This document shows, piece after piece, positions 6,497 through 64,000 of a stretch of 64,000 nucleotides of DNA. This DNA is from Acidobacteriota bacterium (GTDB taxonomy: Bacteria; Acidobacteriota; Thermoanaerobaculia; Thermoanaerobaculales; Sulfomarinibacteraceae). The notes beneath the pieces are model-generated. The model saw nothing but the letters and a program-made list of their open reading frames with translations, did not search any database and was not told the DNA's origin. Location of the stretch: positions 1,951-65,950 of the forward strand of contig JAHECW010000003.1 of the NCBI GenBank assembly GCA_024641545.1, in the 5' to 3' direction. Each line of letters begins with the position of its first letter. The first letter of the stretch is position 1. The position numbers were made by a program, and so were the translations under genes.

Positions 6497-6718
6497 GGTA
6501 AGGAAGTGAGGAAGTGAGGAGGTTAGAAGGTTAGAAAGTGAGGAGGTTAGAAGGTGGGCCTGCTACAGAACTTGAACGCCTCCCGTGCACTCATGCGATG
6601 CACCTCCTCACAGCGCGCGAAGCGAGCGCTTACTTCCTGACCTCTTCACAGCGACCGGAGGGAGCGCTGACCTCCACACCTTCTCACCAGCGACCGAAGG
6701 GAGCGCTCACCTCCTACA
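6497..6718 (-). repeat. E1-family copy B (inverted relative to 521-720)
   Basis: Purine words TAAGGAAG TGAGGAAG TGAGGAGG TTAGAAGG TTAGAAAG (6499-6556). Core GGTGGGCCTGCTACAGAACTTGAACGCCTCCCGTGCACTCATGCGATGCACCTCCTC. Then three degenerate units CACAGCG..CG.AG.GAGCGCT.ACCTCC up to 6718. Confidence 0.85.
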
Positions 6719-7547
6719 GCTCCACCCCCATCGGTTTCTTCAGCGCGAAGGCGAAAACCATGGTCAGGACGAAGAAGACCACCATCCAGGCGAAGCTCCA
6801 CTCCCAACTCCAACCGAAGATCTCCATGGTCGCTTCGGGGTAGGCGATGGTGATGCGCCGGATCTGAGCGTCTCGGTCAAAGGGCGGCTCCGACGGCCAC
6901 TCGAGCTGATCCATGAATCCGGACGGCGGACGTTCGGGCGACAGACGCACGACCCGGTCGGTGACGCTCACGGTCTTGGTCGCCGTCGTGCCGCCGATGG
7001 TGAAGCCGAGCTCGTAGTCGCCGGGGGCGTCGGCGGCGAGCTCCCAGTTGAGCTCGCCGAGAGAGGGGACCCACACCGCCGGAGTCTCGAGGTGGAGGCC
7101 CTCGGGGACCTCGATGGCGAGATCAGGGCGCGGTCCGCCCGTGGTCGCCAGCTCGACCCGCAGCAGCGCGGTCTCGCCGGGCGCAAAGCCGCGAAAACCG
7201 TAGAACATGTGGAGCTGGACCATGAGCAGCACCAGCGGCGGCAGGATGAAGACCATGGGCACCAGCGCCAACCCCTGATAGCGCAGGACGTGGCCGGTGA
7301 TCTCCCACTGGGCCCTGGCGATGGCGCGGAGATCGTCGTTGAAGAGCCGGATCTCGAAGAGCGAGGCGGCGATCTTGTTCTTGACCGCGGTGATCTTGTC
7401 CTGATTCGAGGTCTTGCCGAAGACCCACAGGGCGAAGACCGACACCGGGATCGACCACACGATCACCCCGACCATGGCCGGCAACCCGCTCAGGGGCGCC
7501 TGCAGCCAGTCGATCACCGTGCCGAGCATCGCATTAAGACTCGTCAT
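6714..7547 (-). CDS. hypothetical membrane protein
   Basis: 277 aa with TM helices at the N-terminus, the middle and the extreme C-terminus, and a central soluble segment. It lies 17 nt downstream of the 7564-7758 ORF on the same strand. No family recognised. Confidence 0.65.
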   Translation of the reverse strand: MTSLNAMLGTVIDWLQAPLSGLPAMVGVIVWSIPVSVFALWVFGKTSNQDKITAVKNKIAASLFEIRLFNDDLRAIARAQWEITGHVLRYQGLALVPMVFILPPLVLLMVQLHMFYGFRGFAPGETALLRVELATTGGPRPDLAIEVPEGLHLETPAVWVPSLGELNWELAADAPGDYELGFTIGGTTATKTVSVTDRVVRLSPERPPSGFMDQLEWPSEPPFDRDAQIRRITIAYPEATMEIFGWSWEWSFAWMVVFFVLTMVFAFALKKPMGVEL

Positions 7548-7563
7548 GGTCTGGAATCAACCC

Positions 7564-7758
7564 CTACGACATGTAGCCGAGGCCCTGGAGGCGTTTCTTG
7601 ATTTCCTCCTCGTCCCCGGCCTCCTCGAGCAGCGCGAGCTCCTTCTCGAGGGCGTGAGTGATGAACTCCTCGGGCGAGGAGTAACCGGCGATCTCGGCGA
7701 ATTTGCGAATCCGTTCGACGAGGCTCGCGTCGAGCTTGACCTTGGTGCTTCCGAACAT
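7564..7758 (-). CDS. small ribbon-helix-helix-like protein (64 aa)
   Basis: AGGAGG lies 7 nt upstream of the ATG. KVKLDASLVERIRKFAEIAGYSSPEEFITHALEKE fits a strand-helix-helix pattern. The C-terminus is EEEIKKRLQGLGYMS. Confidence 0.6.
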   Translation of the reverse strand: MFGSTKVKLDASLVERIRKFAEIAGYSSPEEFITHALEKELALLEEAGDEEEIKKRLQGLGYMS

Positions 7759-7868: not shown

Positions 7869-10001
7869 TCATTTCAGTGATGCCTTGTCGAGCAGCGGCC
7901 TGCCGTCCATGTGCGCCGCCGGCCGGATCCCGAAGAGGGTGAGCACGGTGGGCGCGAGATCGACGATGTGCGGGTCCGCGGACGACACCTCGTGGTTGCA
8001 CAGGAGGATCCCGGGGACCAGCCGCGGATCGACGATGTGATCGCCGCTCCACGCCTTGACGTTGTCCTCGAAAACCTCGCCCGCGACCACCCCCGAGGCG
8101 CAGTCCCACGAGATCCGGTAGCCGTGGTTGTACCCCATGAGCAGATCGGGGGCGTTGCCCTTGTACGGCCCGCGGTAGAGGGTGTCGGTGTCGAAGGCCT
8201 CGTTGATGGCGATGTCACCGGTCTCGGTGTCCACCAGGCCCTGCAGGTTGGCGGCGATCTGCCGTTTGACCGCCTTGGCCTCTTCGCCGGGATCAACGAT
8301 GCCCCGGGCCTCGCGGCCGCGGATGTTGAGGAACATCCCGACCAGCCCGACGGCGTAGGCCTTGGTCGTCGACCAGTCCACCGACTGGAGCCAGGGCTGG
8401 GTGGGGTCGGCGCCCGGCTTGAGGTTGAGATAGCCCTCTTTCAGCAGCCAGGCGTTGAGGTTGACGCCGCGGCGGAACGAGGTGCAGCCGTGGTCCGAGA
8501 GCACGAAAAGAACGTCGTCGTCGTTGATCTTGTCGAGCGTCCTGCCGACGATGCCGTCGTTGCGGATGTACTGCCGCTCGATGGCGTCGGCGTACTCGGG
8601 GTCGTCGACCCCCGCGGCCGCCGGGTGACCCTCATCGATGTAGCGCCAGTACATGTGGTTGACGCGGTCGGTGGCGTCGAAGACCGTGACCAGCGCGCCC
8701 GACCGCAGCCGGTCGAGGGCGATGTCGAGCATCTGCTCACGCTCGCCGTCGACATCCTGGGTCTGGGTCCAGAAGGTGCCGTCGTCGGTGATTTGCTCGT
8801 TCAGGGCCCATGTATCTTCCGCCAATCCGAGGGTGGCGAAGGGGCCGATCTTCTTCTCGAGATAGCTCGAGTAGTAGGAGGGGTGCGAGATCGGCATGGC
8901 GGGCTTGCCGGGTTCGATGTTGATCGGCGACATGTAGAGCGAGACGTGCTCGCCGGTCTCGGTGAGCATGATCCGGGTGAGACCGCTGACCTTCATCCCG
9001 GGGATGACCTTGAAGTCGAGCTTGACCCAGTCGCTGAGCTCGCCGGTCCTGAGCTCGAGCCTGGTGCCGCTGATGGCGGCCGTCGCCGTCCCCGACTCCG
9101 GGTCGACATCGATGGTGAGCGGCAGCTCCATGGGCGGGTTGCCCTCGAAAAAGGAGTTCTCGGGGCCCAGCAAGGTGGCCTCGAAGCTCGTTGCCGAGCC
9201 GTTCCGGCTGAGGCTGACGCGGATCCCGCCCTCCTGGAAGGCCTCGTCCTCCGGGCGGGTCGTGAAGAGCATGAAGCTGCCCTGGGTGCCGAGGAGGTCC
9301 GGGATGCACATGGCGCCGAGCTGGGCGCCGTAGAACTTGTCGGGCGGGAAGGTGATGGGCACCCGGATGATGGTGCTCCAGATGTTGTTCTCGCCGAGGA
9401 TGGTCCACCACGGTTTGGACATCCGCAGCAGCCGGATATCGGGTTTGGCGAGCGGGATCCTCAGCTTGCCGATCTTCAGGGTTTTCTCCACCGGGCCGAT
9501 GTGGGCCGAGCTCAGGCGGGGGAGATAGGTTCGCGGGTCGCGGTCGAGGAAGTCGAAGATGTTGTGCCGGCCGGGGTTGGTTCCGGTGCTGAAGGATGAC
9601 CACGCCACCGGCGTGATCGACGGGAAGGTGGTGCGGAGCCTGCGGTAGCAGCCGCGTTCGGCGAGCCTGGAGAAGTTGGGCAGTTTGCCTTCGGCCATCA
9701 TCCGCTCGGTGATCTGTGCGTCCTGGCCGTCGAAGCCGATGAAGATCGTCCGCTTGACCAACGGTTTGGATTTGCGGCGGTGGCGAATCATCCGCCACAC
9801 GGTCCGGAAGGGCCAGGCGAGGATCGACACGCCGGCCAGAATCATGGTCACGAAGATCACGGCGAAGGAACCGAGAACCGCAAACCCCGCGCCCGGGCCG
9901 ATGTAGGCGTCGGCGGTGGCCGGCGCTCCCAACACGAGAAACACCAAGGCGGTCCCGACCCAGACCCCGGACCATCGGTGGGCGTGTGTTGTCGTCGTCA
10001 T
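7869..10001 (-). CDS. alkaline-phosphatase-superfamily enzyme, nucleotide pyrophosphatase/phosphodiesterase (NPP) type, membrane anchored
   Basis: 710 aa. N-terminal TM hairpin (YIGPGAGFAVLGSFAVIFV). FIGFDGQD...TFPSITPVAWSSFSTGTNPGRHNIFDF and VLSDHGC match NPP-family metal and nucleophile motifs. Confidence 0.8.
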   Translation of the reverse strand: MTTTTHAHRWSGVWVGTALVFLVLGAPATADAYIGPGAGFAVLGSFAVIFVTMILAGVSILAWPFRTVWRMIRHRRKSKPLVKRTIFIGFDGQDAQITERMMAEGKLPNFSRLAERGCYRRLRTTFPSITPVAWSSFSTGTNPGRHNIFDFLDRDPRTYLPRLSSAHIGPVEKTLKIGKLRIPLAKPDIRLLRMSKPWWTILGENNIWSTIIRVPITFPPDKFYGAQLGAMCIPDLLGTQGSFMLFTTRPEDEAFQEGGIRVSLSRNGSATSFEATLLGPENSFFEGNPPMELPLTIDVDPESGTATAAISGTRLELRTGELSDWVKLDFKVIPGMKVSGLTRIMLTETGEHVSLYMSPINIEPGKPAMPISHPSYYSSYLEKKIGPFATLGLAEDTWALNEQITDDGTFWTQTQDVDGEREQMLDIALDRLRSGALVTVFDATDRVNHMYWRYIDEGHPAAAGVDDPEYADAIERQYIRNDGIVGRTLDKINDDDVLFVLSDHGCTSFRRGVNLNAWLLKEGYLNLKPGADPTQPWLQSVDWSTTKAYAVGLVGMFLNIRGREARGIVDPGEEAKAVKRQIAANLQGLVDTETGDIAINEAFDTDTLYRGPYKGNAPDLLMGYNHGYRISWDCASGVVAGEVFEDNVKAWSGDHIVDPRLVPGILLCNHEVSSADPHIVDLAPTVLTLFGIRPAAHMDGRPLLDKASLK

Positions 10002-10200: not shown

Positions 10201-10812
10201 ATGGGATCGATTCTCGGCAGACTGCTGCGCCGGCTCAAGTACGGTAAACCCATCGTGTTGGTGTCGGGGCTGCCGCGCTCCGGCACCTCCATGGCGATGA
10301 AGATGCTCGCGGCCGGCGGGATGGAGACCATCGTCGACAACATCCGAACCGCCGACGAGGACAACCCCAAGGGCTACTTCGAGGACGAGCGGGTCAAGAA
10401 CCTGGCCGAAATGGACGACACGAGGTGGCTCCGCGCCGCCCGCGGCAAGGTCATCAAGGTGGTCTCGTCGTTGCTCCAGTATCTGCCCGACGACAACACC
10501 TACAAGGTGATCTTCATGCGCCGCAATCTGCGCGAGGTCTTGGCGTCCCAGGCAAAGATGCTCGAGCGCCGCGGCGAAGAGAACACGGCTGACGACGACG
10601 CCATGCTCCGCATGTACGAAGCTCACCTGGACAAAATGAAGTTCCAGTTGAGATTCCGTGACTGGTTCGATGTTCTCTATCTCGATTTCGCCGACGTCGT
10701 CGCCGACCCCGAAACGGCCGCGCGGCAGATCAACGAGTTCCTCGGCGGCACGATGGATGTCGAAAAGATGGCCGTCGAGGTCGATCCGAATCTCTATCGC
10801 AATCGGGCGTAG
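10201..10812 (+). CDS. PAPS-dependent sulfotransferase family protein
   Basis: 203 aa. 5'-PSB-like loop VSGLPRSGTS and 3'-PB-like FMRRNLREVLAS. Confidence 0.7.
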   Translation: MGSILGRLLRRLKYGKPIVLVSGLPRSGTSMAMKMLAAGGMETIVDNIRTADEDNPKGYFEDERVKNLAEMDDTRWLRAARGKVIKVVSSLLQYLPDDNTYKVIFMRRNLREVLASQAKMLERRGEENTADDDAMLRMYEAHLDKMKFQLRFRDWFDVLYLDFADVVADPETAARQINEFLGGTMDVEKMAVEVDPNLYRNRA

Positions 10813-19649: not shown

Positions 19650-19695
19650 CAGTGACAACCCCTGGTTTCGTGACTGGTGACTGGTGACCAGTCAC
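19650..19695. repeat. CAGTCACC-word array/palindrome
   Basis: GTGACTGGTGACTGGTGACCAGTCAC contains the perfect palindrome GTGACTGGT-G-ACCAGTCAC. The same word in the opposite orientation occurs at 31227-31254. Confidence 0.8.
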
Positions 19696-20090
19696 AATCC
19701 AACCTTCACCACACGATAGCCGGCGCCCTCCAACCCTGCGACCGCCGCGTCGAGCTGGCTTCCCTGAACGAGCACGTAGTCGGTGTCGTAGGTCGAAATG
19801 GCGAAGATGGAAATCCCGGCGTCGGCGAGCACCCCGGAGATGCCTGCGAGGATGCCCACCAGCGAAAAATCGAGGGGACCACGGACCTTGAGGGCCCGCC
19901 ACCCCGCAGTGTGGGTGATTTCGGTGGGCACCGGATCGGCGGCGCAGACCAGCGAGAGCTCCTCATCGGTGCTGGTGATGCTGGTCAGTTCGCCCGACCA
20001 CGCCCATTTCGGCACCGGCGCATCGACCGGGAGCCGGCAGACGGCGAGCTCGTCGGGCAGGACCTCAAGGGCGAGCTTGGGGCTGGTCAT
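19692..20090 (-). CDS. ACT domain-containing protein
   Basis: 132 aa from MTSPKLALEV. GPLDFSLVGILAGISGVLADAGISIFAISTYDTDYVLV is a typical ACT fold segment. Confidence 0.7.
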   Translation of the reverse strand: MTSPKLALEVLPDELAVCRLPVDAPVPKWAWSGELTSITSTDEELSLVCAADPVPTEITHTAGWRALKVRGPLDFSLVGILAGISGVLADAGISIFAISTYDTDYVLVQGSQLDAAVAGLEGAGYRVVKVGL

Positions 20091-20121
20091 CTCGGGCCGA
20101 GTGTATGGCGTTCCGCTCGGG

Positions 20122-20178
20122 CTGTCATCCTGAGCACCACCGCGCGGTCGGGCAACGCCTGCCCGTGGAATGGCCCGT
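20122..20178 (-). repeat. 55-nt conserved upstream motif, copy 2
   Basis: Minus-strand reading ACGGGCCATTCCACGGGCAGGCGTTGCCCGACCGCGCGGTGGTGCTCAGGATGACAG. It lies 32-88 nt upstream of the ACT gene start. Confidence 0.5.
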
Positions 20179-20261
20179 GTTTCTCCATTCTCAACACCGA
20201 TCTGCGCGCGAGACGCGCGCACCACAACCTGCCCGCGTTCGTTGTTCACCCTGACGTTGGC

Positions 20262-20290
20262 CATTGTGGTGCGGGCGTCCCGCCCGCAAG
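20262..20290 (+). repeat. REP2-family copy with a different but still complementary stem
   Basis: CATTGTGG-TGCGGGCG-TCC-CGCCCGCA-AG: same head, 8-bp stem of different sequence. Confidence 0.6.
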
Positions 20291-20361: not shown

Positions 20362-22038
20362 ATGAGCATTCGATCTCTGATTCTCGCGATCGCAGGCTGT
20401 ACCGGTCTCCTGGCGATCGCAGGCTGCGGCCCGGACCCGGTCGACGGGTTCATTGCCCGGGTCGACGATCTCGCCGAGCTCGATGACCTCGACGAGGAGA
20501 TCGAGTTCTCACAGCCCGAGGACTGGGTCGAGAGCTATCGGCCGGAGGCCGGTTCTCCGGGTTACAACCTGATTCTCTACCGCCGTCGTGTGCCCACGCT
20601 CATCGACATGCAGGGCCGGGTCGTGCACCTCTGGCCGAAGGTACGGGCGGTGGGTCGGGTTCGTCTCGACGAGAACGGCCGGCTGACGGTGATCGGCGTC
20701 GACAATATGATCAAGGAGTACGACTGGGACGGCAAGCTGACCTGGGCCTACGGCCTGCCGAGACCGGAGGACCTCCCGCACCACGATTTCGCCAGGCTCG
20801 CCAACGGCAACGTCCTGGTGCTGGCGCAGGAGGTCGAGACCCGCTCGGACTACCTGCAGGAGGTCGATCGGCGCGGCCGGGTCGTCTGGGAGTGGTGGCC
20901 GAGGGACTCTCTCGACGAGCACTTCCCCGATCGCGATCGGCGGTACCCCGATCCCACCCATGTCAACTCGGTCTTCGAGCTGCCCGAGAACCGGTGGTTC
21001 GACGACGGGGACGTCCGCTTCCGACCGGGCAACATCCTCGTCAGCGCGCGCAACCTCAACACCATCTTCATCGTCGAAAAGAGGAGCGGGGAGATCGTCT
21101 GGATGCACACCGACGGCCTCGACTTCCAGCACGAAGCGCAGATGGTGCCGAAGGGAGTGCTCGGCGCCGGCCTGGTGGTCTTTTTCAACAACGGTTATCA
21201 CGACCTCAACGCCTACCGGCGGAGCGAGATCAGGGTCATTCACCCCATCGACGGCCGACTGCTCTGGTCGTACTCGGCGCCGGACTTCTACTCCACCGTC
21301 GCCGGTGTCGAACAGGTTCTGCCCAACGGCAATGTCCTGATCACCTCGAGCGAGGGCGGCCGGGTCTTCGAGGTGACCCCGGAGAAGCAGATCGCGTGGC
21401 AGTGGATCCCTCCCTACCTGCCCATGCGGGTCATCCGTTACCCGGCGGTTTTCTGTCCGCAGCTGGCCGCGCTCGGTCCCCTGGACAGCCGGGCGGTGAA
21501 CCGTTCCGACCGGCACCCCTGGGTCGACATCGAGCTCGGACAGTACGCCTTCGGCGGCGATTACCGGGTGGCGACGCTCTATGGTCTCGTGCGTGAGGTT
21601 CTGCTCGATCCCAGCGGTTGCCGCGAGCTCCTCCTGCCCGTGGACCCCGTGCTCCAGGTCGCCTACGGTTTCGACGACACGGCGCTCGAGGGCGCGCCGG
21701 CCTCGGCGAGCTTTCGGGTCACGGTGCGCGACCTCGCGACCGGTGAGACCCGGGTCGTGATCGACGACACCCTCCACCCTTCCGGTGACGAGATCTTCCG
21801 CGACCGGTACGTGGCCGTTCCGGGTTTCGGTCTCAAGCGCGCCGAGCTCTGTATCGAGGCGTCGGCCGGGGGCGGGCGCGGGATCGGCGAGCTCCACCCG
21901 TCGGTCTTTCTGTCGAACCCTCGTTTCTACTCCCGGGTGCGGGCGCAGCTCAACCGAAAGTGGAAGGAGAGTCGGATCAGCCTCCAGGAGCAGGCGCTGC
22001 AGGAGCGCCAGCTCCGCGCCATCGGTTACGTGCAGTGA
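20362..22038 (+). CDS. arylsulfotransferase (ASST)-like beta-propeller lipoprotein
   Basis: 558 aa. Lipobox LLAIAGC. HHDFARLANGNVLVL...THVNSV...NILVSARNLNTIFIVEK...FQHEAQ resembles the ASST/Arylsulfotran_2 family. The C-terminus is QERQLRAIGYVQ. Confidence 0.7.
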   Translation: MSIRSLILAIAGCTGLLAIAGCGPDPVDGFIARVDDLAELDDLDEEIEFSQPEDWVESYRPEAGSPGYNLILYRRRVPTLIDMQGRVVHLWPKVRAVGRVRLDENGRLTVIGVDNMIKEYDWDGKLTWAYGLPRPEDLPHHDFARLANGNVLVLAQEVETRSDYLQEVDRRGRVVWEWWPRDSLDEHFPDRDRRYPDPTHVNSVFELPENRWFDDGDVRFRPGNILVSARNLNTIFIVEKRSGEIVWMHTDGLDFQHEAQMVPKGVLGAGLVVFFNNGYHDLNAYRRSEIRVIHPIDGRLLWSYSAPDFYSTVAGVEQVLPNGNVLITSSEGGRVFEVTPEKQIAWQWIPPYLPMRVIRYPAVFCPQLAALGPLDSRAVNRSDRHPWVDIELGQYAFGGDYRVATLYGLVREVLLDPSGCRELLLPVDPVLQVAYGFDDTALEGAPASASFRVTVRDLATGETRVVIDDTLHPSGDEIFRDRYVAVPGFGLKRAELCIEASAGGGRGIGELHPSVFLSNPRFYSRVRAQLNRKWKESRISLQEQALQERQLRAIGYVQ

Positions 22039-22039
22039 C

Positions 22040-22215
22040 GGAGGTGAGGGGGTGAGCTCTCCCTTCGGTCGCTGGTCAGAAGGTCAGCGCTCGCGATGCT
22101 CGCTGTGAGGGGTGAGGCCTTCCTCCAATCGGCAGTGAGGAGGCCCAGAGCATCAGGCCCCCGACTCTCTGACTTTCTCACTTTCTCACTCTCGTACGTC
22201 TCACGTCTCACCCCG
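22040..22215 (+). repeat. E1-family partial copy
   Basis: GGTGAGCTCTCCCTTCGGTCGCTGGTCAGAAGGTCAGCGCTCGCGATGCTCGCTGTGAGG matches the reverse complement of units in 6604-6718. It ends in words CTTTCTCA x2 and CGTCTCAC x2. Confidence 0.7.
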
Positions 22216-22216
22216 T

Positions 22217-22321
22217 CTACCTGATGTAGCCCAGGGATTCGAGGAGTGCGCGTTCCTCTTCGGTGATGCCCGCATCACTCGGTTTCGACCTTTTGAGGCA
22301 TGCCGTACAATGTCCGACCAT
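22217..22321 (-). CDS. candidate 34-aa CxxC peptide (or 3' gene remnant)
   Basis: MVGHCTACLKRSKPSDAGITEEERALLESLGYIR. Its ATG (22321-22319) interlocks with the ATG of the sulfatase-like gene (CATG). GC3 is only about 64%, so the coding signal is weak. Confidence 0.25.
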   Translation of the reverse strand: MVGHCTACLKRSKPSDAGITEEERALLESLGYIR

Positions 22322-24791
22322 GAGGGGTCGTCTCGCGCTTGCGTTCATTCTCGGCGCCGTCGGTGTCATCGCCGGCTGCGGCGGCGGTTCCCGGGGTTTC
22401 TCCGAGCACACCGGAGAGCCCGGAAAGGGGCGGGTCCTCGTCGATCTGATCGACCGGGCGCGCTCGGCCGAGGTGATGGAAGAGATCACAGCGGTGGATT
22501 TCTCATCGCCGGTGGCGGCCTCGGCCCTGATCTCGGGTTGGGATCGTCCCGAGGGTCTTCAGGCGACCGGGGAAGGCTTCGCCTGGACCGTCGCTGAGAC
22601 CGCGGTGCTCGAGTTCAACCTCTTCGACACCGACCTCGATCGACTGGAGCTGAGCGCCCGCACGCTTGATCGGAAAGAGGGTCCTCCCCAGATCGTCACC
22701 GTGACGCTGAACGGGCGAGACCTCGGCCGGATCACGCTCGACGCCCGGTTCTCCGACCATTCCCTGACGGTTCCCCGGCGCCTGCTGGCGGTGGGAACCA
22801 ACCGGCTCGAGCTCCGGTGTGCGTGGATCGGCCGTCCCGCCGACCTGCTGCCGGACTCCAGCGATCGGCGCAGCCTGGGAGCGGCGTTCCGGCGGGTCGC
22901 ATTCGCCACCGAGTCGACGAAGACCTCCGGCGGTGGAGAGGTTCCTCGACCAGTGGTCGAGGGCGACCGGCTTATTCTCGCGCCCGGCTCGGGACTCCGT
23001 TACCGTTTCACCGCGCCCGAGGACGGTTTCCTCGAGCTGAAGATCGTCGATCCGGGTCCGGGTGAGCCGGTGTCACGGGCGTTGGTCTGGGTTGCCGAAC
23101 CGGGCCGGCCGGCGGCGGACTCGTTCTTCCTCGAGCCCGCGGGTGAAACCGGCGATGCGACGAGATGGACCATCAACTGGCCGGCCGGCAAGCCCGTTGA
23201 ACTCGGCCTCGCGGCTGTCGGGGAGGGCGGTCCCGAGACCGGGTTCGCCGTCGTCCGAGGGAGCGTGCGGGGCGAATCGGGCGGCGACGAGGGCATGCCG
23301 AACGTGCTGCTCATCGTGGTCGACACGCTGCGCGCCGACTACCTCGGTGTCTACGGCGCCGATCTCCACACGCCGACTGTGGATGGGCTCGCGGCCCGGG
23401 GAGTACTTTTCAGGCATGCGCGCTCGCACATTCCCATTACCGGCCCCAGCCACGCCTCGCTCTTCACATCGTTGCTGCCCATGGAGACCGGGGTCCACAA
23501 CAACGCCCAGCATCTCGCCGGAAACCTGCCGACTCTCGCCGAGTCCATGCGACTTTCTGGTCGTCGCACCGCCGCGGTGATCAGCCTCGGCGTGCTCCAA
23601 CGCGACTTCGGCTTTGATCGCGGTTTTGATCACTATGGCGACGACTTTCCCCGCGACTGGATGAAAGACGCGGTCGAGGTCACCGACGAGGCGCTCGCGG
23701 TCGCCGCCGATCAGCTGACCGATCCATTCTTCCTCTGGGTCCACTACTCCGACCCGCACGAGCCGTACGCGCCGCTCGGGGCAGAGTACCCGACCTTCGA
23801 CCTGCGGCTCGCCGGAGAGTCGATCGGAACCATGGACGCCTGCGGGCGCGGCTTCTGGTTCGATGTCGTGGTTCCTCCCGGTGAGAGCACCTTCGAATTC
23901 GTGCCCGTCGACCGCGATCCCGACCGGATCTTCCGGGTCGACAGTCTGAGGTTCCATCACGAGATGATCGACTCCGAGCCCCTCGACGGTTGGGAGGTGA
24001 TCCGTCGCCGGATGGGGAGAACCATGCTCCAGTCGTCCTTCCCGGCGACAATCCGCGTCACCAACCGTTCCGGCGCTCCGGTCGAGACCAGGCTGCTGGT
24101 GTCGGTCAAGGAGTTCCTGAGCAAACCGGAGATCCGGCGGAACTACGGCAGAGAGGTCGAGATCGCCGACCGGGAGATCGGCCGGTTGCTGGCCGAGCTC
24201 GGGGAGCGGGGATTGCTGCGCAACACCCTGGTGGTCTACGTTGCGGATCACGGCGAGGCTCTCGGGAACCACAACCAGATCGGGCACGTCAGCCAGCTCT
24301 ACGACACCTTGCTCCACGTGCCGCTGATAATGGTCTGGCCCGGACGACTGCCGGCGGGGTTGGCGGTCGATGACCCGGTGGGTCTGGTCGATGTCTTTCC
24401 CACCTTGGCCGATCTGCTCGGAATCGAGGCGCCGGCGGCCCCGTCGGGCGTCAGCCTCGTCCCCCTCATGCGGGGCGAGCAGCTTCCTGCCCGACCGTTC
24501 ATCGCAGCGACCTACCGGCCGGAGGCCGGATCGGACATCCGGGCCATCCTCATCGACGGTTTCAAGTACATCCACTCGTGGCGGGACGACAAGCACCGGG
24601 AGGAACTCTACGATGTGGTCAAGGACCCGGGCGAGCTCGATAACCTCGCGAAAGAGAACCCCGAGATGCTTGAAGCACTCCGCGCAGAGCTCGCTCGGCG
24701 GCTCGCCGAGATCGCCGAGAGATCGCCCGTCGAGGCGGAACTCAGCGTGGAGGACCGCGACAACCTCGAGGCGCTGGGATACGTCCACTGA
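22320..24791 (+). CDS. sulfatase-like (alkaline phosphatase superfamily) lipoprotein with Thr/His variant active-site motif
   Basis: Start at MRGRLALAFILGAVGVIAGC (lipobox). LLIVVDTLRADYLGVYG...SHIPITGPSHASLFTS...VADHGEALGNH is sulfatase-fold collinear, but C/S-x-P-x-R reads T-G-P-S-H. A large N-terminal beta-rich domain is present. The C-terminus is EDRDNLEALGYVH. Confidence 0.8.
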   Translation: MRGRLALAFILGAVGVIAGCGGGSRGFSEHTGEPGKGRVLVDLIDRARSAEVMEEITAVDFSSPVAASALISGWDRPEGLQATGEGFAWTVAETAVLEFNLFDTDLDRLELSARTLDRKEGPPQIVTVTLNGRDLGRITLDARFSDHSLTVPRRLLAVGTNRLELRCAWIGRPADLLPDSSDRRSLGAAFRRVAFATESTKTSGGGEVPRPVVEGDRLILAPGSGLRYRFTAPEDGFLELKIVDPGPGEPVSRALVWVAEPGRPAADSFFLEPAGETGDATRWTINWPAGKPVELGLAAVGEGGPETGFAVVRGSVRGESGGDEGMPNVLLIVVDTLRADYLGVYGADLHTPTVDGLAARGVLFRHARSHIPITGPSHASLFTSLLPMETGVHNNAQHLAGNLPTLAESMRLSGRRTAAVISLGVLQRDFGFDRGFDHYGDDFPRDWMKDAVEVTDEALAVAADQLTDPFFLWVHYSDPHEPYAPLGAEYPTFDLRLAGESIGTMDACGRGFWFDVVVPPGESTFEFVPVDRDPDRIFRVDSLRFHHEMIDSEPLDGWEVIRRRMGRTMLQSSFPATIRVTNRSGAPVETRLLVSVKEFLSKPEIRRNYGREVEIADREIGRLLAELGERGLLRNTLVVYVADHGEALGNHNQIGHVSQLYDTLLHVPLIMVWPGRLPAGLAVDDPVGLVDVFPTLADLLGIEAPAAPSGVSLVPLMRGEQLPARPFIAATYRPEAGSDIRAILIDGFKYIHSWRDDKHREELYDVVKDPGELDNLAKENPEMLEALRAELARRLAEIAERSPVEAELSVEDRDNLEALGYVH

Positions 24792-24821
24792 TTTTGTCGA
24801 CGAGCGTGCTATTCTCCGCTC

Positions 24822-25307
24822 ATGGCGCGCGCCGAGAAGATCACCCTGAAGGTCAACGGTGAGCCGCACTCGCTGACCATCGACCCCGGTGAGCCTCTGC
24901 TGTGGGTCCTGCGCGACCAGCTCAAGCTGACCGGGACGAAATTCGGCTGCGGCGAAGGAGAGTGCGGCGCCTGTTCGGTGCTCATCAACGGTGAGGTCTT
25001 CCGATCGTGCATGGTGACGGTCGGTGAGCTGGCGGCGGATGACCAAATCGTCACCATCGAGGGTCTCGGCCGACCGGGGAATCTGAGCGAGCTGCAACGC
25101 GCGTTTGTCGACCACACCGCCTTCGGTTGCGGCTACTGCACCCCGGGGATGATCGTCACCGCCGAGGCCTTGCTGCGGTCGAACCCGCACCCGAGCCGGG
25201 ACGAGATCGTCAGCGCCATGGACGACAATCTCTGCCGCTGTGCGTCCTACCCAGCCATCGTCGAGGCCGTCGCGAGCGTCGCCGGCGGTGTGAAACGGGA
25301 GGACTGA
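24822..25307 (+). CDS. (2Fe-2S)-binding small subunit of a xanthine-dehydrogenase-family oxidoreductase
   Basis: 161 aa with CGEGECGACSV and CGYCTPG...CRC cluster motifs. Confidence 0.9.
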   Translation: MARAEKITLKVNGEPHSLTIDPGEPLLWVLRDQLKLTGTKFGCGEGECGACSVLINGEVFRSCMVTVGELAADDQIVTIEGLGRPGNLSELQRAFVDHTAFGCGYCTPGMIVTAEALLRSNPHPSRDEIVSAMDDNLCRCASYPAIVEAVASVAGGVKRED

Positions 25308-27434
25308 GTGCCCCTGAACCGGCGGACCTTCCTCGAACTGCTCGGCGGCAGCACCGCATACGCATTCACCTTCTCCTGTTCGGATGGCACGGGCACGGTT
25401 GACGAGGCCCCGGTGGAGGCCGATGCCGGAGTCATCGCCAATCACGCGGTGCGCTACTTCGTCGACTACACCGAGTGGCTCTTCATCCACGCCGACGGGT
25501 CGGTGACCGCCCACGCCGGCCGGGTCGACATGGGCCAGGGTCTCAAGACCGTGCTCAGCAACCTCATCAGCCAGGGCCTCCAGCTTCCGCCCGAGAAGGT
25601 CGAGCTGGTGCTCGGCGACACCTCGAGCTGCCCCGACGACGGCCCCACCGAGGGCAGCAACGCGACCCGGATCGTCGGTTGGGGCTACTGGCGGGCGTGC
25701 GAGCGCATCCGTGACCACCTGGTCGAGCGGGCCGCCGGGATCCTCGGCGTCTCGCCGAAGAAGCTGGTTTATCGGGACGGCGCGATCGTGGCGAAAAACG
25801 ACCCGACGGTGCGGCTGGCCATCGGTGAGCTCGCCGACGGCACGGTCCACCTCGACACCATCGAGCCCCGCGCCTGGTATTCGAGTTCGACGCCGTATGT
25901 CGATCGCGGGACGCCGAGCGTCAACGGCGAGGCGATCGTCACCGGAACCCTGGTCTACACCGGTGACTTCGATCCCGGTGACTGCTGCTACGGCGCCTTT
26001 GCCTCGTCGCAGTACCACATCCAACTGACCGAGATCGAGGCCGCGGACTTCGCCGCCGCCGCAGCGGTCCCGGGAGTCGTGAAAGTGGAGCGTACCGGGG
26101 CATCGGCGATGGCGGTGGGGGAGAGTTTCACTTCCGTCCAGCGCGCCCTGAAGGCGCTCGCGCCGCGGTGGCGGATTCCGGAAAGGGATCGGATCCTCGA
26201 TGTCGAGGGCGAGATTCGCCGGGGGGCCGAGCTCCGGAAGACCGTCGAAGAGGCCGGTGATCCCGAGCGCAAGCTCGGTTCGAGCCCGGTCAGGATCAGT
26301 GAAACCTACATCACCCAATACGCCTCCCAGGTGCCCATGGAAACCGAGACCGCCGTCGCCGAGGTCGAGGGCGACCGCGCGACGGTGTGGGCGAGCACCC
26401 AGGCGCCCTTCAAGGCGCGGGTGCGGGTGGCGAAGAGGCTCAAGATCCCCGAGGAGAACGTCCGCATCATCGCCATGCCGGTGGGCGGCGCCTTCGGCGT
26501 CAAGGTGGACACCCCGGCGCCCGACGAGGCGGCGTTGCTCGCCCGGAAGACCGGTCGACGGGTCAAACACGTCTACACCCGCGAGTATCAGTTCAACGGC
26601 CGGGCGCGTTACAAGGAGGCCGTGGTCGCCGACATCACCAGCGGCGTCACCGAGAACGGACGGCTGGTGGCGCGGACGATCGATCTCTACCAGGACGAGG
26701 GTTTCGGAAGCGCTGATACCTATGACATTCCCCACGTCCGGACCCGGCTCTTTTCGTCGCCGATGCCGGCGAGGCACGGCACCATGCGCGGCACCAGCTT
26801 TGTCCAGACCTGTTTTGCGGTCGAGAGCCACACCGATGTCCTCGCCGAGGCCCTCGGGATCGATCCGCTCGAGTTCCGGAAAAGGAACCTGGCGGTCGCC
26901 TCGTTCGGGCCGCTCCTCGATGCCGTCGCGGAGATGATCGGTTATCAACGCGCGCCGGACGGCGACCACGGCATCGGCGTCGCCATCTGCCACCACGGAG
27001 GGCGGCAGTTGGGCGCGGTCGCCGCCGAGGTTTCGGTGGACAGGACTTCCGGGGTGGTGCGGGTCGAGCGGCTCGCCGGCGCCTTCGACATCGGGCTCGT
27101 CATCAACCTCAACACCCTCACCGCCAACACCAAGGGCGCCATGCTCTGGGGGCTCGGTTTCGCGCTCTTCGAGGAGGTCCGCGTCGACGGCCACCAAAGT
27201 TTCACGCGGGGTTTGAGCGACTACCGGATTCCGCGGTTTTCCGACGTGCCTCCCATGGAAATCGCCTTTCTTTCCAACGAAACCAAAGACGGATGGCCGA
27301 GGGGTTGCGGCGAGCTGCCGGTGATCCCCACCGTGAGCGCCATCGCCAATGCGGTTGCACGGGCCATCGGGGTGAGGTTCCACACCCTGCCGTTGACGCC
27401 GGAGCGGGTGCTCGAGGGTCTGCGGGAGAGCTGA
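25308..27434 (+). CDS. molybdopterin-binding large subunit (IorB/aldehyde-oxidase-like), Tat signal
   Basis: 708 aa. GTG start abuts the previous stop (TGAGTG). Twin-arginine leader NRRTFLELLGG. Collinear with isoquinoline 1-oxidoreductase beta-type subunits. Confidence 0.85.
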   Translation: MPLNRRTFLELLGGSTAYAFTFSCSDGTGTVDEAPVEADAGVIANHAVRYFVDYTEWLFIHADGSVTAHAGRVDMGQGLKTVLSNLISQGLQLPPEKVELVLGDTSSCPDDGPTEGSNATRIVGWGYWRACERIRDHLVERAAGILGVSPKKLVYRDGAIVAKNDPTVRLAIGELADGTVHLDTIEPRAWYSSSTPYVDRGTPSVNGEAIVTGTLVYTGDFDPGDCCYGAFASSQYHIQLTEIEAADFAAAAAVPGVVKVERTGASAMAVGESFTSVQRALKALAPRWRIPERDRILDVEGEIRRGAELRKTVEEAGDPERKLGSSPVRISETYITQYASQVPMETETAVAEVEGDRATVWASTQAPFKARVRVAKRLKIPEENVRIIAMPVGGAFGVKVDTPAPDEAALLARKTGRRVKHVYTREYQFNGRARYKEAVVADITSGVTENGRLVARTIDLYQDEGFGSADTYDIPHVRTRLFSSPMPARHGTMRGTSFVQTCFAVESHTDVLAEALGIDPLEFRKRNLAVASFGPLLDAVAEMIGYQRAPDGDHGIGVAICHHGGRQLGAVAAEVSVDRTSGVVRVERLAGAFDIGLVINLNTLTANTKGAMLWGLGFALFEEVRVDGHQSFTRGLSDYRIPRFSDVPPMEIAFLSNETKDGWPRGCGELPVIPTVSAIANAVARAIGVRFHTLPLTPERVLEGLRES

Positions 27435-27505
27435 CCCGGCGGTGGCCTCCAGCCGGCATCCGGGCCGGAGTTGAGGATTCCCCGCTGGACGATTGGGATC
27501 GGCGA

Positions 27506-29215
27506 TCAGTGATGACTGATCGCAACCGTGAGCACGAACACCGCTCCGCCGCCCTCCGCGTCAGCAAGCTCGAGATCCCCGCCCTGGGCCCGGGCGAGCG
27601 AGCGCGCGAGAGCGAGCCCGAGACCGAGGCCGGCGGGGGCGTTGTCGTCGTCGGGCCGCTGGAAGGCCTTGAAGAGCGATCGTCGCTCGGAGTGGGGTAT
27701 GCCGGGCCCGTTGTCTCTGACGGCGATCGTGACGCTGTCGGGCGCCGCGCGAACCGTCACCTCCGCCCGCCGATCGGGCTGCGCCCTGGTGTACTTCTCG
27801 GCGTTGTCGAGAAGGTTGTCGAGGATCTGGCAGAGGGCGTCGAAATCGAAGTCGGCGGTCGGCAGATCATCCTCGATGTCGGTGGTGATGCTCAGCCCCG
27901 CGTCGCCGAGGCCCGACTGGATCCGGTCGATGCAGCGGGTCACGGCTGCGCCGATGTCGCCGGGTTGCGGGCTCGCGATCTGCGCCCCGCGCTCGAGCCG
28001 AGCGAGGTCGAGCATGTTCGAGACCACTCTCCCGAGGCGGCCGGACTCCGAGGCCACCCTCGCGGCGTAGACCTTGGACTGCTCGGGTCTGCCGAGGCCC
28101 TCGCTGAGCATCTCGCTGTAGAGCCGCAGGCTGGCCAGGGGGGTCTTGAGCTCGTGCGCCGCGGCGGCGGCGAAACGTCCCCGTTGGCGCGCGAGTCGAT
28201 CGGTCTGGAAGAAGACGACCATGACGGCGAGGGCGGAGAACAGGACCGCGATCGCGCCGAGCGCGAAGATCCGGCGGAACTCGATGATGCCCCGCCGTCC
28301 GTCGGCCCGCGCCCGTTCGACGAGCGGGGTCGCGTCGGCGCTGAGCCACCAACCGGTGTCCGAGACCGGGGAAGAGAGCCGATCGGAAGGCAGCATGGCC
28401 GACGGTGTGAAATGCACCTCGGTCCCGTTGTCGGACCCGAGCCACTGCTCGACGCCGGAAGGGGCGACCACAAAACCCTGAATCCTGATCCCCAGGGGGG
28501 TTTCGACCTCTCGCAGTGCGGCGAGGGTCGGGCCGCTGCCGAAGACCATGGTGTGCCACCTCAGCGGGCCGACCCGGATGACGACCTGACCGGGATTCCC
28601 ATCGAGAGGTTTTCGCGGTGTCTCGCCCCGCCCGGTGATCGCGGCATAGACCTGGTCGGCGTCTCGGATCTGCTCCCACTCCGAGAGGCGGAGAACGAAC
28701 AACTCGCCTTCGAAGTACCCGCCGTCGTATCCTCCGGGGTTGTTGAGGCCCATCTCCATCGCGCTCTGCAGCTCGGCGAGGAGCGAGCAGAATCGGGTGA
28801 AATTCTCGCTCGACGAGAGCTCCGGGAAGCGCTCGTTCACCATGGGGAGGGTCACAACCCCGTTCTCGTTGAGCTGGAAGTGGGCCCAGACAAGCGGGTC
28901 GGAGACCCCCTGGGCCAACGGCGACGGCGTGACGGCGAGACCCTCCGCGGCGCCTCCCGGGTCGTGGGTGATGCTCTGGTAGTGGAAGAACGGCCGTACG
29001 CTCTCGTCGGCGCGAAGGCGTTCGAGACGAGAGGCGAGCCGGGCGGAGTCGCGGTGAAGGGCGCTCTGAAGATCGTCGACAACGGTGGTTTCCAACAGCC
29101 GTGCGCGGCGGTTGGCCTCGCTGGCGCCGGTGAGGTACCAGGCGGTGGTCGGGAGGATCACCGCGATCGCGAGGGCCAGGGCGGCGAGGGTCGTACGTCG
29201 ACGGGACGAGGTCAT
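27506..29215 (-). CDS. sensor histidine kinase (HisKA + HATPase_c) with large periplasmic domain
   Basis: 569 aa. Two TM segments flank about 300 aa. H-box AAAAHELKTPLASL, N-box LDNLLDNAEKY, G-boxes DNGPGI and GLGLGLA. Confidence 0.9.
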   Translation of the reverse strand: MTSSRRRTTLAALALAIAVILPTTAWYLTGASEANRRARLLETTVVDDLQSALHRDSARLASRLERLRADESVRPFFHYQSITHDPGGAAEGLAVTPSPLAQGVSDPLVWAHFQLNENGVVTLPMVNERFPELSSSENFTRFCSLLAELQSAMEMGLNNPGGYDGGYFEGELFVLRLSEWEQIRDADQVYAAITGRGETPRKPLDGNPGQVVIRVGPLRWHTMVFGSGPTLAALREVETPLGIRIQGFVVAPSGVEQWLGSDNGTEVHFTPSAMLPSDRLSSPVSDTGWWLSADATPLVERARADGRRGIIEFRRIFALGAIAVLFSALAVMVVFFQTDRLARQRGRFAAAAAHELKTPLASLRLYSEMLSEGLGRPEQSKVYAARVASESGRLGRVVSNMLDLARLERGAQIASPQPGDIGAAVTRCIDRIQSGLGDAGLSITTDIEDDLPTADFDFDALCQILDNLLDNAEKYTRAQPDRRAEVTVRAAPDSVTIAVRDNGPGIPHSERRSLFKAFQRPDDDNAPAGLGLGLALARSLARAQGGDLELADAEGGGAVFVLTVAISHH

Positions 29216-29228
29216 GGAAAGTGAGTTC

Positions 29229-29909
29229 TCAGTCTTCGCCCCAGGCGTAGCCCGCGCCCGTGACGGTGACCACGATCCTGGGGGCGGTCGGGTCGCGTTC
29301 GATCTTCTGCCGGAGCTTGGCGACGGTCATGTCCACGGTTCGGGTCTGGAGATCGCCGCTGGTTCCCCAGACCCGCTCCAGGAGCTCGGATCTCGACACC
29401 GCTCGGTTCTGGTGGCGATGGAGCCAACGCAGAATCCCGACCTCGCGAGCGGTGAGGTGGGTCATGTCGCCGTTGCGGATGGCGTGGTGGCGGCCGAGAT
29501 CCATGGTGCAGCCGTCGAGCTCGAGAATTTCGCGCTCGGCCGGGGCCGAGGAAGCCCGGCGAGCGAAGACCTCGATTCTGGCGAGCAACTCACGGACGCC
29601 GAAGGGCTTGGTGACATAGTCGTCGGCGCCGGCGGCAAATCCGGCGACCTTCTCGTCCTCGGAGCCCCGCGCGGTCAGCATCAGGATCGGGAGGGAGGGG
29701 CGGGACTGACGGAGGCGCCGACAGACCTCGATTCCGTCCATCTGCGGCAGCATCAGGTCGAGCAGCACCAGATCAAAGGTCTCGGAGATGCCGGTCTCGA
29801 CGGCGGTTCGGCCGTCTCCCACCGCGGTCACATCGTGGTCCGCAGCGGACAGCAGGTCCACCAGGCCTTCGCGGAGTCGGTGCTCGTCTTCAACAACCAG
29901 GATTCTCAT
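29229..29909 (-). CDS. OmpR-family response regulator
   Basis: MRILVVEDE receiver (DLVLLDLMLP) plus a winged-helix C-terminus (TVDMTVAKLRQKIE). It lies 13 nt upstream of the kinase. Confidence 0.9.
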   Translation of the reverse strand: MRILVVEDEHRLREGLVDLLSAADHDVTAVGDGRTAVETGISETFDLVLLDLMLPQMDGIEVCRRLRQSRPSLPILMLTARGSEDEKVAGFAAGADDYVTKPFGVRELLARIEVFARRASSAPAEREILELDGCTMDLGRHHAIRNGDMTHLTAREVGILRWLHRHQNRAVSRSELLERVWGTSGDLQTRTVDMTVAKLRQKIERDPTAPRIVVTVTGAGYAWGED

Positions 29910-30108
29910 TGTCCTACCCGTACTCAGCATAGCCGAGCCGTGCCCAACTGGGTATCACGATGCGGTAAATCGTTGTCAGGTTGCGAGTTCGATCCGGGCT
30001 CGCGGTCCGCCGCCCGGCGATCCCGGCGGGTGTTCTCACATCGCCCCGGTCCGATGGCCCTGTCCCTCTGGGAATGGGCACGATCTTCGCTTATTGTACA
30101 AAGCGGAA

Positions 30109-35536: not shown

Positions 35537-35841
35537 GGGTCCTCCGGTGGGCGCTGCCGTTGGGGATCATAACGTATGTCGGGACGAGGTCGGAGCGGGG
35601 AGGGCTTCCGCTTCGCCGCTCGAGTTGTCGCTCGTGACCATGCATCTGTCGCGTCTGTCCATGGTGAGGTCGACCGACCGACAGTATCCTTGGAAAGGTT
35701 CGGATGTTCAGGAAAGCCACTTGGGCCGGGCCCTGGAGTTCCGGAATTGAGCCGCACGGGCGGCGACCGCGTTTTCCACTTGGGGCCGAGTCCGCAACGC
35801 GTCGATCTCTTTATCGACGTCGAGGGGAAGGAGCTCTCAGT

Positions 35842-63402: not shown

Positions 63403-64000
63403 TCAGGGAACCACCCGATTCCAGGCCGAGGTGTCGCCCGACTCGAAGCCGTCCGAGAAAAGCGCGAGTTCCAACGCCCACAGCTCGCGGCCGTTGACGA
63501 GGTCCATCGCTGAGAAGAAGACCCGGCGACCGGAGAGCAGCGGCGCCCAGGGATCGGACGAGTTCGGTCCGGGGACGAGATCGAAGACCAGGGTGCCTTG
63601 GGCAGACCCGTCGGTGACCACCAGCTCGCTGCCGAACCCGTCGATCCGGGCCGGGAAATAGAGCCGGCCGTCGTCGACCACGGCCTCGGAGTCAAAGGCC
63701 GGGAACCGGCTCCCCCCCGGGCCCTGGACGAGCTCGAAGGCCATGGCGGTGCCGGCTGATGTGCCGTCGGTGAGCCAGAGCTCCCAGCCGTGGACGCCGT
63801 CGGTGTGCCAGAAGGCCAGACGGCTGTCGAAGGAGGTGAGGCCGGTCGGCATAAAGGACTCGCTGCCCGGATAGACATCGGCGGTCATGGTCGTTCCCAC
63901 AGCGGTTCCGTCCGAGCTCCAGACCTCGGCGCCGTGCACGCCGTCGTTGGCGGTGAAGAAGACCCGGTCGCCGCGGCGGGTCAGCTGGAACGGCATCGAC
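63403..64000 (-). CDS. ELWxxDGT-repeat secreted protein, C-terminal part (5' end outside window)
   Basis: Repeats AEVWSSDGTAVGT, WELWLTDGTSAGT and SELVVTDGSAQGT. C-terminal tail LFSDGFESGDTSAWNRVVP. Confidence 0.7.
   Translation of the reverse strand, partial: SMPFQLTRRGDRVFFTANDGVHGAEVWSSDGTAVGTTMTADVYPGSESFMPTGLTSFDSRLAFWHTDGVHGWELWLTDGTSAGTAMAFELVQGPGGSRFPAFDSEAVVDDGRLYFPARIDGFGSELVVTDGSAQGTLVFDLVPGPNSSDPWAPLLSGRRVFFSAMDLVNGRELWALELALFSDGFESGDTSAWNRVVP

Follow-up and report, generated by a model that had tools for sequence, protein, structure and literature searches.

Sulfatases and phosphonate monoester hydrolases (PMHs) that belong to the alkaline phosphatase (AP) superfamily carry C-terminal extensions that are specific to subgroups and mediate oligomerisation, and in choline sulfatase these extensions reach the active-site entrance of the adjacent protomer through fully conserved residues (PMC5870055). 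Here we describe a short C-terminal sequence, the LGY tail, that recurs on proteins encoded in a 64,000-nucleotide stretch of the genome of an Acidobacteriota bacterium of the Sulfomarinibacteraceae (GenBank assembly GCA_024641545.1, contig JAHECW010000003.1, positions 1,951 to 65,950, forward strand; hereafter the window, with positions counted from its first letter). The tail ends a sulfatase-like lipoprotein, an arylsulfotransferase-like (ASST-like) lipoprotein and a 64-residue protein resembling ribbon-helix-helix (RHH) proteins, here called RHH64. The motif is real, its recurrence is not random, and it had gone unannotated: neither Pfam nor NCBIfam has a model that covers it, and a limited search of the literature found nothing relevant to it. 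We read the tail as a self-capping terminal helix module, a clade-specific extension with a probable role in packing or oligomerisation, and give this reading a probability of roughly 0.55; it would not be a ligand whose free C-terminus is bound by a PDZ or tetratricopeptide repeat (TPR) domain. Most likely it is an extension that serves structure or oligomerisation, and not a novel system of targeting or docking.

A conserved tail on sulfatase-like modules

The sulfatase-like protein of the window matches the Pfam Sulfatase model (PF00884, E = 1.6e-44), with an SGSH_C match reaching residue 799 of 823. A Foldseek search with its AlphaFold2 (AF2) model returned sulfatase, PMH and choline-sulfatase structures (E about 1e-27, TM-score about 0.6), and the protein has the AP-superfamily fold of type I (S1) sulfatases. 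The C/S-x-P-x-R formylglycine sequence of true sulfatases is absent: T-G-P-S-H, at residues ~390–400, aligns with S-Q-P-S-R of Protein Data Bank (PDB) entry 3b5q, and its Thr and His are at least 90% conserved in 76 homologues. Because Thr stands in place of the formylglycine precursor, the protein is not to be filed as a true sulfatase. Members of the TxPxH clade are probably not formylglycine sulfatases, and the window 'sulfatase' is probably a mis-annotated Thr-nucleophile phospho- or other transferase or hydrolase. The AF2 model also holds an all-beta insertion of ~100 residues and ~10 strands within the catalytic domain (model residues 192–298, protein residues ~492–598), and a region of ~300 residues, named DUF7024 in a homologue at a related locus (L002), lies ahead of the catalytic domain.

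A hidden Markov model (HMM) of the tail scores only ~18 bits on independent instances, too weak for a search of 1.8e9 sequences, so we used the last 250 residues of the sulfatase-like protein in an exhaustive phmmer search of 1.84e9 cluster representatives and examined the best 150 matches, which are mutually less than 50% identical. A word-index search with tail alignments gave nothing beyond fragments of the same orthologues. Exactly two residues past GY is where 88 of these 150 representatives end; 15 end three residues past it, and about 20 more have the motif no more than 35 residues from their end. The consensus is ELSEEE..RLRALGY[VIL][RHQN], with a polar last residue that varies among R, H, Q, N, E, D, K and S. 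L519, G520 and Y521 (AF2 model numbering) are invariant in 76 diverse homologues, as are the catalytic H, D and H residues. The tail is found together with TxPxH, and nine of ten CxPxR sulfatases do not have it. It lies beyond SGSH_C, past the catalytic core, and a PDB search aligned no solved sulfatase sequence over it. Judged from these alignments, the tail is an invariant C-terminal extension specific to a large Thr-type (TxPxH) sulfatase-like clade.

The motif also occurs inside longer proteins. In tandem sulfatases (P0203, P0222, P0238, P0247, P0294 and P0297) every module closes with it and leads into an acidic or Pro-rich linker; in other proteins (P0202, P0262, P0267, P0280, P0301, P0311, P0318 and P0328) it stands ahead of TPR arrays, and in many TPR fusions it is followed by G..LPDPKD and then by the array. 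A free C-terminus is therefore not required and, since fusions keep the tail internally, what it marks is where a folded module ends and not where the polypeptide does. An earlier reading made from the sequence alone (the sequence-only reading) had allowed that the motif might be an internal linker motif, terminal only by truncation. Internal copies do exist, at module ends.

The same reading had put forward, as one hypothesis, a C-terminal docking peptide bound by a separate receptor (a PDZ protease or a TPR domain, for example), and had pointed to the TPR-bearing TMTC-like gene at 39227–41236. The window does encode this TPR-bearing PMT_2-like protein, and sulfatase–LGY–linker–TPR fusions are common, which in the Rosetta-stone sense hints at joint action of TPR arrays and these modules and weakly supports a TPR connection of some kind. 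However, a motif that can be internal has no need of a free carboxylate, and the polar, variable last residue is unlike that of PDZ, Tsp or EEVD ligands. Tails occur in the periplasm and the cytoplasm alike, and a single receptor for all of them is unlikely, since they belong to periplasmic lipoproteins and also to a protein that lacks a signal peptide. None of the tail-bearing clusters that we compared contains a conserved TPR or PDZ gene. The neighbourhood of the TPR/PMT_2 gene is not conserved either, and the PMT_2 neighbour at locus L008 has no TPR and no homology to the window proteins; we rejected the link to this gene, and we consider a receptor-bound ligand of this type improbable.

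The predicted structures bear on what the module might be. In a Schellman (alpha-L) cap, a hydrophobic-x-x-x-Gly-hydrophobic sequence ends a helix through a hydrophobic contact between positions C3 and C''. We ran AF2 monomer models with alignments and read them by predicted local distance difference test (pLDDT) and DSSP. The catalytic part of the sulfatase-like protein has a mean pLDDT of 94, with block means of 94 for residues 501–510 (including a beta-bridge at 505) and 85 for 511–520, and ends in a helix at 510–518 followed by L519-G520-Y521-V-H. The ASST-like protein, an ASST beta-propeller by its matches to PF05935 and PF14269 (65.5 and 57.5 bits against cut-offs of 24.2 and 27), has a mean pLDDT of 92 and is all-beta up to residue 524; a 29-residue helix at 525–553 then leads into I-G-Y-V-Q, with pLDDT falling from 95 to 73 along the helix. 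By DSSP the helices end at A518 and A553, one residue ahead of Gly, with L516 and L551 at C3 and Tyr at C''. In these predicted models the tail is a Schellman-type helix C-cap pattern, with a helix stop before Gly and hydrophobic residues at C3 and C'', and the upstream L-[ST]-x-E-E looks like an N-cap. The ending is as constant in the ASST-like family: ..EQER.LREQQL[RKE]A[LI]GY[VI][QNED] closes 119 of 120 homologues, at identities down to 44%, and L551, G555 and Y556 are invariant in an alignment of 111 sequences, in which H89, H140, H141, H200 and H257 are invariant as well.

Under the capped-helix reading, the tail would comprise an N-cap (L-[ST]-x-E-E), an acidic-then-basic helix, a C-cap (L-x-x-L-G-Y), a hydrophobic anchor [VILM], usually one polar residue, and the stop. 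Gly would be the helix-stop residue, Tyr would pack back on the Leu four residues ahead of Gly, and the helix, by analogy with other AP-superfamily extensions, would pack on the catalytic domain, make a subunit interface, or both. That the conservation of L-G-Y equals that of the catalytic residues would follow from such a role. The fixed register of GY arises because most genes stop one residue past the last structured residue, the hydrophobic anchor. Several points weigh against this proposal. A high pLDDT for a conserved helix is no proof of docking, and both the packing site and the subunit contact are argued by analogy; a plain helix cap rarely needs an invariant Tyr; and the falling confidence along the ASST helix fits a projecting rather than a packed helix. 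In addition, three unrelated folds in functionally linked clusters share near-identical tails, with L[ST]E[EQ]ER..L[RK]A[LI]GY[VI]x common to the ASST-like and sulfatase-like proteins, which may point to a common binding function that a helix cap does not require.

Recurrence in the window and an antisense reading frame

The register of the tail, with GY at positions −4 and −3 from the C-terminus, was scored over the 928 six-frame stop-to-stop segments of at least 30 residues in the window. It occurs in four segments, and these are exactly the four open reading frames (ORFs) to which the sequence-only reading had drawn attention: those of the three proteins introduced above and an antisense ORF of 34 residues between the two lipoprotein genes. 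The full pattern [LIVM]xx[LIVM]GY[LIVM] is found seven times in the six frames, four of them one residue before a stop. For GY at one fixed register 0.70 cases are expected (0.06 for the full motif), and P(≥4) is 0.006; the recurrence beyond chance that had been claimed holds up, with the caveat that the four cases are not independent, as the sulfatase-like protein and the antisense ORF are paralogues, and that the antisense ORF is no conserved gene. The DNA coding for the tails uses unlike codons at synonymous sites, and the sequence downstream is unrelated between copies. Conservation is therefore at the protein level, and these differences rule out a DNA-level repeat or mobile element as the source of the stop codons. 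Three of the four ORFs encode real proteins (ASST-like, sulfatase-like and RHH-like), and the antisense one is a pseudogene fragment; the window holds four copies because it contains both conserved gene clusters described below and the relic of a third sulfatase gene.

A scan of genome contigs with the sulfatase-like protein found one locus only, L001, from a related Acidobacteriota metagenome-assembled genome, whose sulfatase orthologue is 82% identical to that of the window. L001 keeps both the ASST tail and the sulfatase tail. It also keeps the antisense peptide ITEEERALLESLGYIR, yet the frame reads on there (..RLAGWG), so that the stop is not conserved, and a 1-nt indel upstream of the peptide breaks the frame. 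The 18 residues (54 nt) of the relic match the tail of a 767-residue sulfatase paralogue in L001 (..ITDEERALLEALGYVRD) with 78% amino acid and ~80% nucleotide identity. In distant genomes the gene order is sulfatase-like (+), ASST-like (+), convergent sulfatase-like (−), and then histidine kinase and response regulator, which is the ancestral layout. From the ASST stop to the end of the convergent sulfatase gene the distance is 171 nt in L007 and 264 nt in L004; to the stop of the relic in the window it is 179 nt. This spacing, together with the match to a sulfatase tail, indicates that the 34-residue ORF is the 3' end of a lost or displaced convergent sulfatase paralogue and not a gene. We rejected a true micro-protein on the unconserved stop, the frameshifting indel and the homology to a sulfatase tail where the convergent gene was lost.

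The surrounding cluster (20362–29930) is rearranged relative to L004, L007, L012 and L013. Relatives have a sulfatase-like gene of ~820 codons upstream of ASST and one of ~770 codons convergent on it; in the window ASST is separated from the histidine kinase by the ~820-codon gene and a 2Fe-2S/molybdopterin oxidoreductase pair (24822–27434), and the convergent gene has been lost. The ASST–sulfatase intergenic region (22039–22216) is ~95% identical to L001, above the wobble positions of the flanking genes, and consists of a GTGAG-rich half followed by a CTCAC-rich half. It may be a former terminator of the convergent gene, or a promoter region. A structured RNA or terminator in the conserved segment 22039–22219 was considered and rejected (fold z-score −0.72, no Rfam match).

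Gene clusters and alternative roles for the tail

Two conserved clusters carry the tail (Table 1). Cluster A consists of genes for an ACT-domain protein (with ATP sulfurylase/adenosine 5'-phosphosulfate (APS) kinase ahead of it), a sulfatase-like protein, one or two ASST-like proteins, a convergent sulfatase-like protein, and a histidine kinase with its response regulator. Cluster B consists of a divergent sulfotransferase, which, as a member of its family, presumably depends on 3'-phosphoadenosine 5'-phosphosulfate (PAPS), one or two Phosphodiest genes, RHH64 and a 277-residue membrane protein; this arrangement is kept in L002, L008, L009 and L010. Each of the six distinct genomes examined has its ASST-like and sulfatase-like genes side by side, with the tail on every copy, and RHH64 directly follows one or two Phosphodiest genes in every genome examined, sometimes overlapping the upstream stop. 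At non-redundant loci the tail is present in 12 of 12 sulfatase-like, 8 of 8 ASST-like and 4 of 4 RHH64 copies. The sequence-only reading had looked to an enrichment across the proteome, and none was seen: the tail HMM, run over the six-frame translation of about 210 kb of related loci, matched only the sulfatase-like, ASST-like and RHH64 families and the relic. In these sampled loci of the lineage the tail is not a general proteome tag.

Table 1 Features of the window that bear on the LGY tail
Feature	Position	Strand	Remarks
ASST-like (arylsulfotransferase-family beta-propeller) lipoprotein, 558 residues	20362..22038	+	Lipobox ..AIAGC; ends in ..QERQLRAIGYVQ and stop
ASST tail, SLQEQALQERQLRAIGYVQ plus stop	21979..22038	+	End of the 29-residue C-terminal helix predicted by AF2
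Sulfatase-like (AP-superfamily) lipoprotein, 823 residues from ATG, Thr-type TGPSH	22320..24791	+	Ends in ..EDRDNLEALGYVH and stop; GTG at 22263 is an alternative start
Sulfatase tail, ELSVEDRDNLEALGYVH plus stop	24738..24791	+	Outside every Pfam model; past solved sulfatases
Antisense ORF	22217-22321	−	Ends in ..EERALLESLGYIR and stop
Relic, 3' end of lost convergent sulfatase paralogue, AGITEEERALLESLGYIR plus stop	22217..22273	−	Previously described as the antisense 34-residue ORF
RHH-like 64-residue protein (RHH64)	7564..7758	−	Ends in ..EEIKKRLQGLGYMS and stop; tail EEEIKKRLQGLGYMS at 7567-7611
Phosphodiest-family AP-superfamily enzyme, membrane-anchored, 710 residues, tail-less	7869..10001	−	PF01663, 8e-30; directly upstream of RHH64
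Sulfotransfer_1/_3-family sulfotransferase	10201..10812	+	By Pfam; divergent from the Phosphodiest-RHH64 operon
277-residue membrane protein	6714..7547	−	No Pfam match; always downstream of RHH64
ACT-domain protein	19692..20264	−	Pfam ACT_7; left neighbour of the sulfatase-like/ASST-like cluster, likewise in L004, L007 and L012

RHH64 has 2655 homologues, in Thermoanaerobaculales and Holophagae, and most of those listed are exactly 64 residues long; some database entries have an N-terminus 21 residues longer (MRRKGKGEGEGKGEDIERELT). GY at −4/−3, as LGY[MILT]S, is retained by 118 of 120 homologues and the tail EEEIKKRLQGLGYMS is nearly invariant, with R56, L57, G59, L60, G61, Y62 and S64 among 29 invariant columns. 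A beta-alpha-alpha pattern recognised by eye and a Pfam RHH_1 match below its cut-off (E = 0.021, 15.2 bits against 20.5) suggest the RHH assignment, and a 40-sequence profile found no relative in the PDB. The protein contains a near-repeat of its own tail, internal IRKFAEIAGYSS at the end of helix 1 compared with C-terminal IKKRLQGLGYMS. Homologues of the adjacent Phosphodiest protein found elsewhere run ~50 residues further and end in ..LRALGYVE, and the window protein stops ~50 residues short of the tail. The idea that RHH64 is simply a split-off Phosphodiest C-terminus is not supported, as the extra 50 residues of the tail-bearing homologues resemble a linker and not an RHH-like domain. 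The window Phosphodiest protein carries a signal-like segment at its N-terminus, followed by a YIGPGAG motif, another transmembrane (TM) segment and a basic cluster (RHRRKSK), a topology, read by eye, which suggests that its catalytic domain faces the cytoplasm.

Metagenome contigs were scanned with a DNA pattern for LRALGY followed by a codon with T at its second position, the stop being left unspecified, which gave 121 in-frame occurrences. Two residues past Tyr, 51 of these (42%) stop, against about 3% expected in random DNA. The 61 occurrences no more than three residues from a stop comprise 39 sulfatase-like proteins, at least seven other AP-superfamily proteins, five apparently CysD-like proteins, two small RHH-like proteins and fragments; the at least seven AP-superfamily proteins match the window Phosphodiest protein, and the three run against Pfam are PF01663. 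Among sulfatase-like metagenome matches the motif is internal in 7 of 52. The CysD-like proteins (L023, L041, L042, L063 and L117; ~270–300 residues) end in ..GRAQDKE....M.KLRALGYM, one residue past GY, and the one of the five checked, from L023, is PAPS_reduct (PF01507) by Pfam; E. coli CysD ends in a similar way (..KKRQGYF). The RHH-like small proteins belong to other lineages (L060, 5871–6119, + strand; L083, 364–636, + strand) and end in ..ERLRALGYLD. The L060 gene is flanked by two SBP_bac_11 oxyanion ABC-transporter operons, one with a DsrE fusion, and the ~7 kb examined around it contain no AP enzyme. LxxLGY also closes helices or proteins in unrelated solved structures, namely the C-terminus of Archaeoglobus fulgidus malate dehydrogenase (MDH; 2x0i, RERLEELGY) and the ribosomal proteins uL13 (..QLAALGY) and eS17.

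These distributions bear on a second account of the tail, as a portable docking helix for AP-fold enzymes that would bind a sulfatase-like or Phosphodiest catalytic domain, in cis or on a like subunit where fused and in trans where carried by partners. The helix would join the ASST-like protein to neighbouring periplasmic sulfatase-like enzymes, and RHH64 would supply one to the tail-less Phosphodiest protein. Consistent with this are the strict ASST-like/sulfatase-like adjacency with every copy tailed, the place of RHH64 directly behind Phosphodiest, the tail borne in cis by Phosphodiest homologues elsewhere, and the absence of the tail from the other genes in about 210 kb. However, a tailed RHH-like protein sits beside the transporter genes of L060 with no AP enzyme nearby, CysD-like proteins have a similar ending, and the sulfatase-like proteins own tails themselves, so that the docking site would be occupied unless docking occurs between subunits. 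We regard a docking helix as rather unlikely. The broader proposal that a portable AP-fold tag builds both periplasmic and cytoplasmic complexes in sulfation-related clusters, with TPR arrays perhaps replacing the receptor in fusions, seems to us similarly doubtful.

A third account would make the invariant Tyr a modification site, a phenolic acceptor or donor (sulfo-tyrosine) for the sulfotransferase and sulfatase-like enzymes of the clusters. Bacterial ASSTs can sulfate peptides that contain tyrosine; the clusters hold ASST-like, sulfatase-like and Sulfotransfer_1/_3 genes together with ATP-sulfurylase/APS-kinase genes, and Tyr is invariant in the sulfatase-like, ASST-like and RHH64 alignments. 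This account is nevertheless very improbable: with Thr in place of the formylglycine precursor, the sulfatase-like clade is probably no sulfatase, the models show Tyr packed as C'' of a helix cap, unrelated MDH and ribosomal proteins share the ending, and in RHH64 it is basic rather than acidic residues that lie within five positions of Tyr.

The window contains a second recurrent ending (..GFEGGSTGGWSSVLP, ..GFESGDTTAWWSAEP and ..GFESGDTSAWNRVVP, each followed by a stop), on the proteins encoded at 35704–37485 (+), 50090–52351 (+) and 63403–63996 (−). An M14 carboxypeptidase with CarboxypepD_reg and MAM-like domains is among the three, and Pfam gives no match for the remaining two.

Significance and comparison with known systems

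The LGY tail marks a very large uncharacterised clade annotated as 'sulfatase', and a model of it would improve annotation and help to place module boundaries within multi-domain proteins. Should the helix prove to link subunits or partners, this would account for why ASST-like, sulfatase-like, Phosphodiest and RHH64 genes cluster so strictly in Thermoanaerobaculia and Holophagae, and the tail would be a simple sequence handle on complex formation. More generally, an apparent 'C-terminal tag' can turn out to be a structural motif at the end of a module.

Like the sorting signals LPXTG, PEP-CTERM, GlyGly-CTERM, PGF-CTERM and the C-terminal domain (CTD) of the type IX secretion system (T9SS), the LGY tail is a recurrent C-terminal motif on several exported proteins of one genome. 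However, the TM helix with basic residues, or the folded CTD, that follows the motif in sortase, exosortase, rhombosortase and T9SS substrates is absent: the polypeptides stop two residues past GY without a TM segment, in agreement with the sequence-only reading, which had already set sortase- and exosortase-type signals aside. The LGY motif is also found internally and on a protein without a signal peptide. With the HbYX motif (PAN, Rpt, and Mpa/Bpa GQYL) it shares a conserved Tyr near the C-terminus, which in HbYX docks into a pocket. HbYX Tyr is penultimate and belongs to cytoplasmic proteins that engage proteasomes, whereas LGY Tyr stands at −3 in each of the four window tails and in the majority of homologues, is found on exported lipoproteins and has no proteasome context. 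In having acidic residues and then a short conserved motif close to the C-terminus, the tail also recalls the ligands of TPR domains (Hsp70/90 EEVD) and of PDZ or tail-specific proteases, but those need a free carboxylate and a defined last residue, whereas the LGY motif has internal copies, a variable last residue and Tyr at −3.

Two further known systems bear comparison. The tail follows the Schellman pattern, with the helix ending one residue before Gly in both AF2 models; generic caps, in contrast, are not normally invariant across families less than 50% identical, nor held at a fixed distance from the stop. Compared with the AP-superfamily extensions, of which that of Sinorhizobium choline sulfatase is an example (PMC5870055), the LGY sequence is unrelated and would form one capped helix rather than about 60 residues with three helices, and it belongs to a Thr-type TxPxH clade and occurs on non-AP proteins (ASST-like and RHH-like) as well. 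Like those extensions, however, the tail is clade-specific, conserved and placed past the catalytic core, on a protein whose fold matches theirs.

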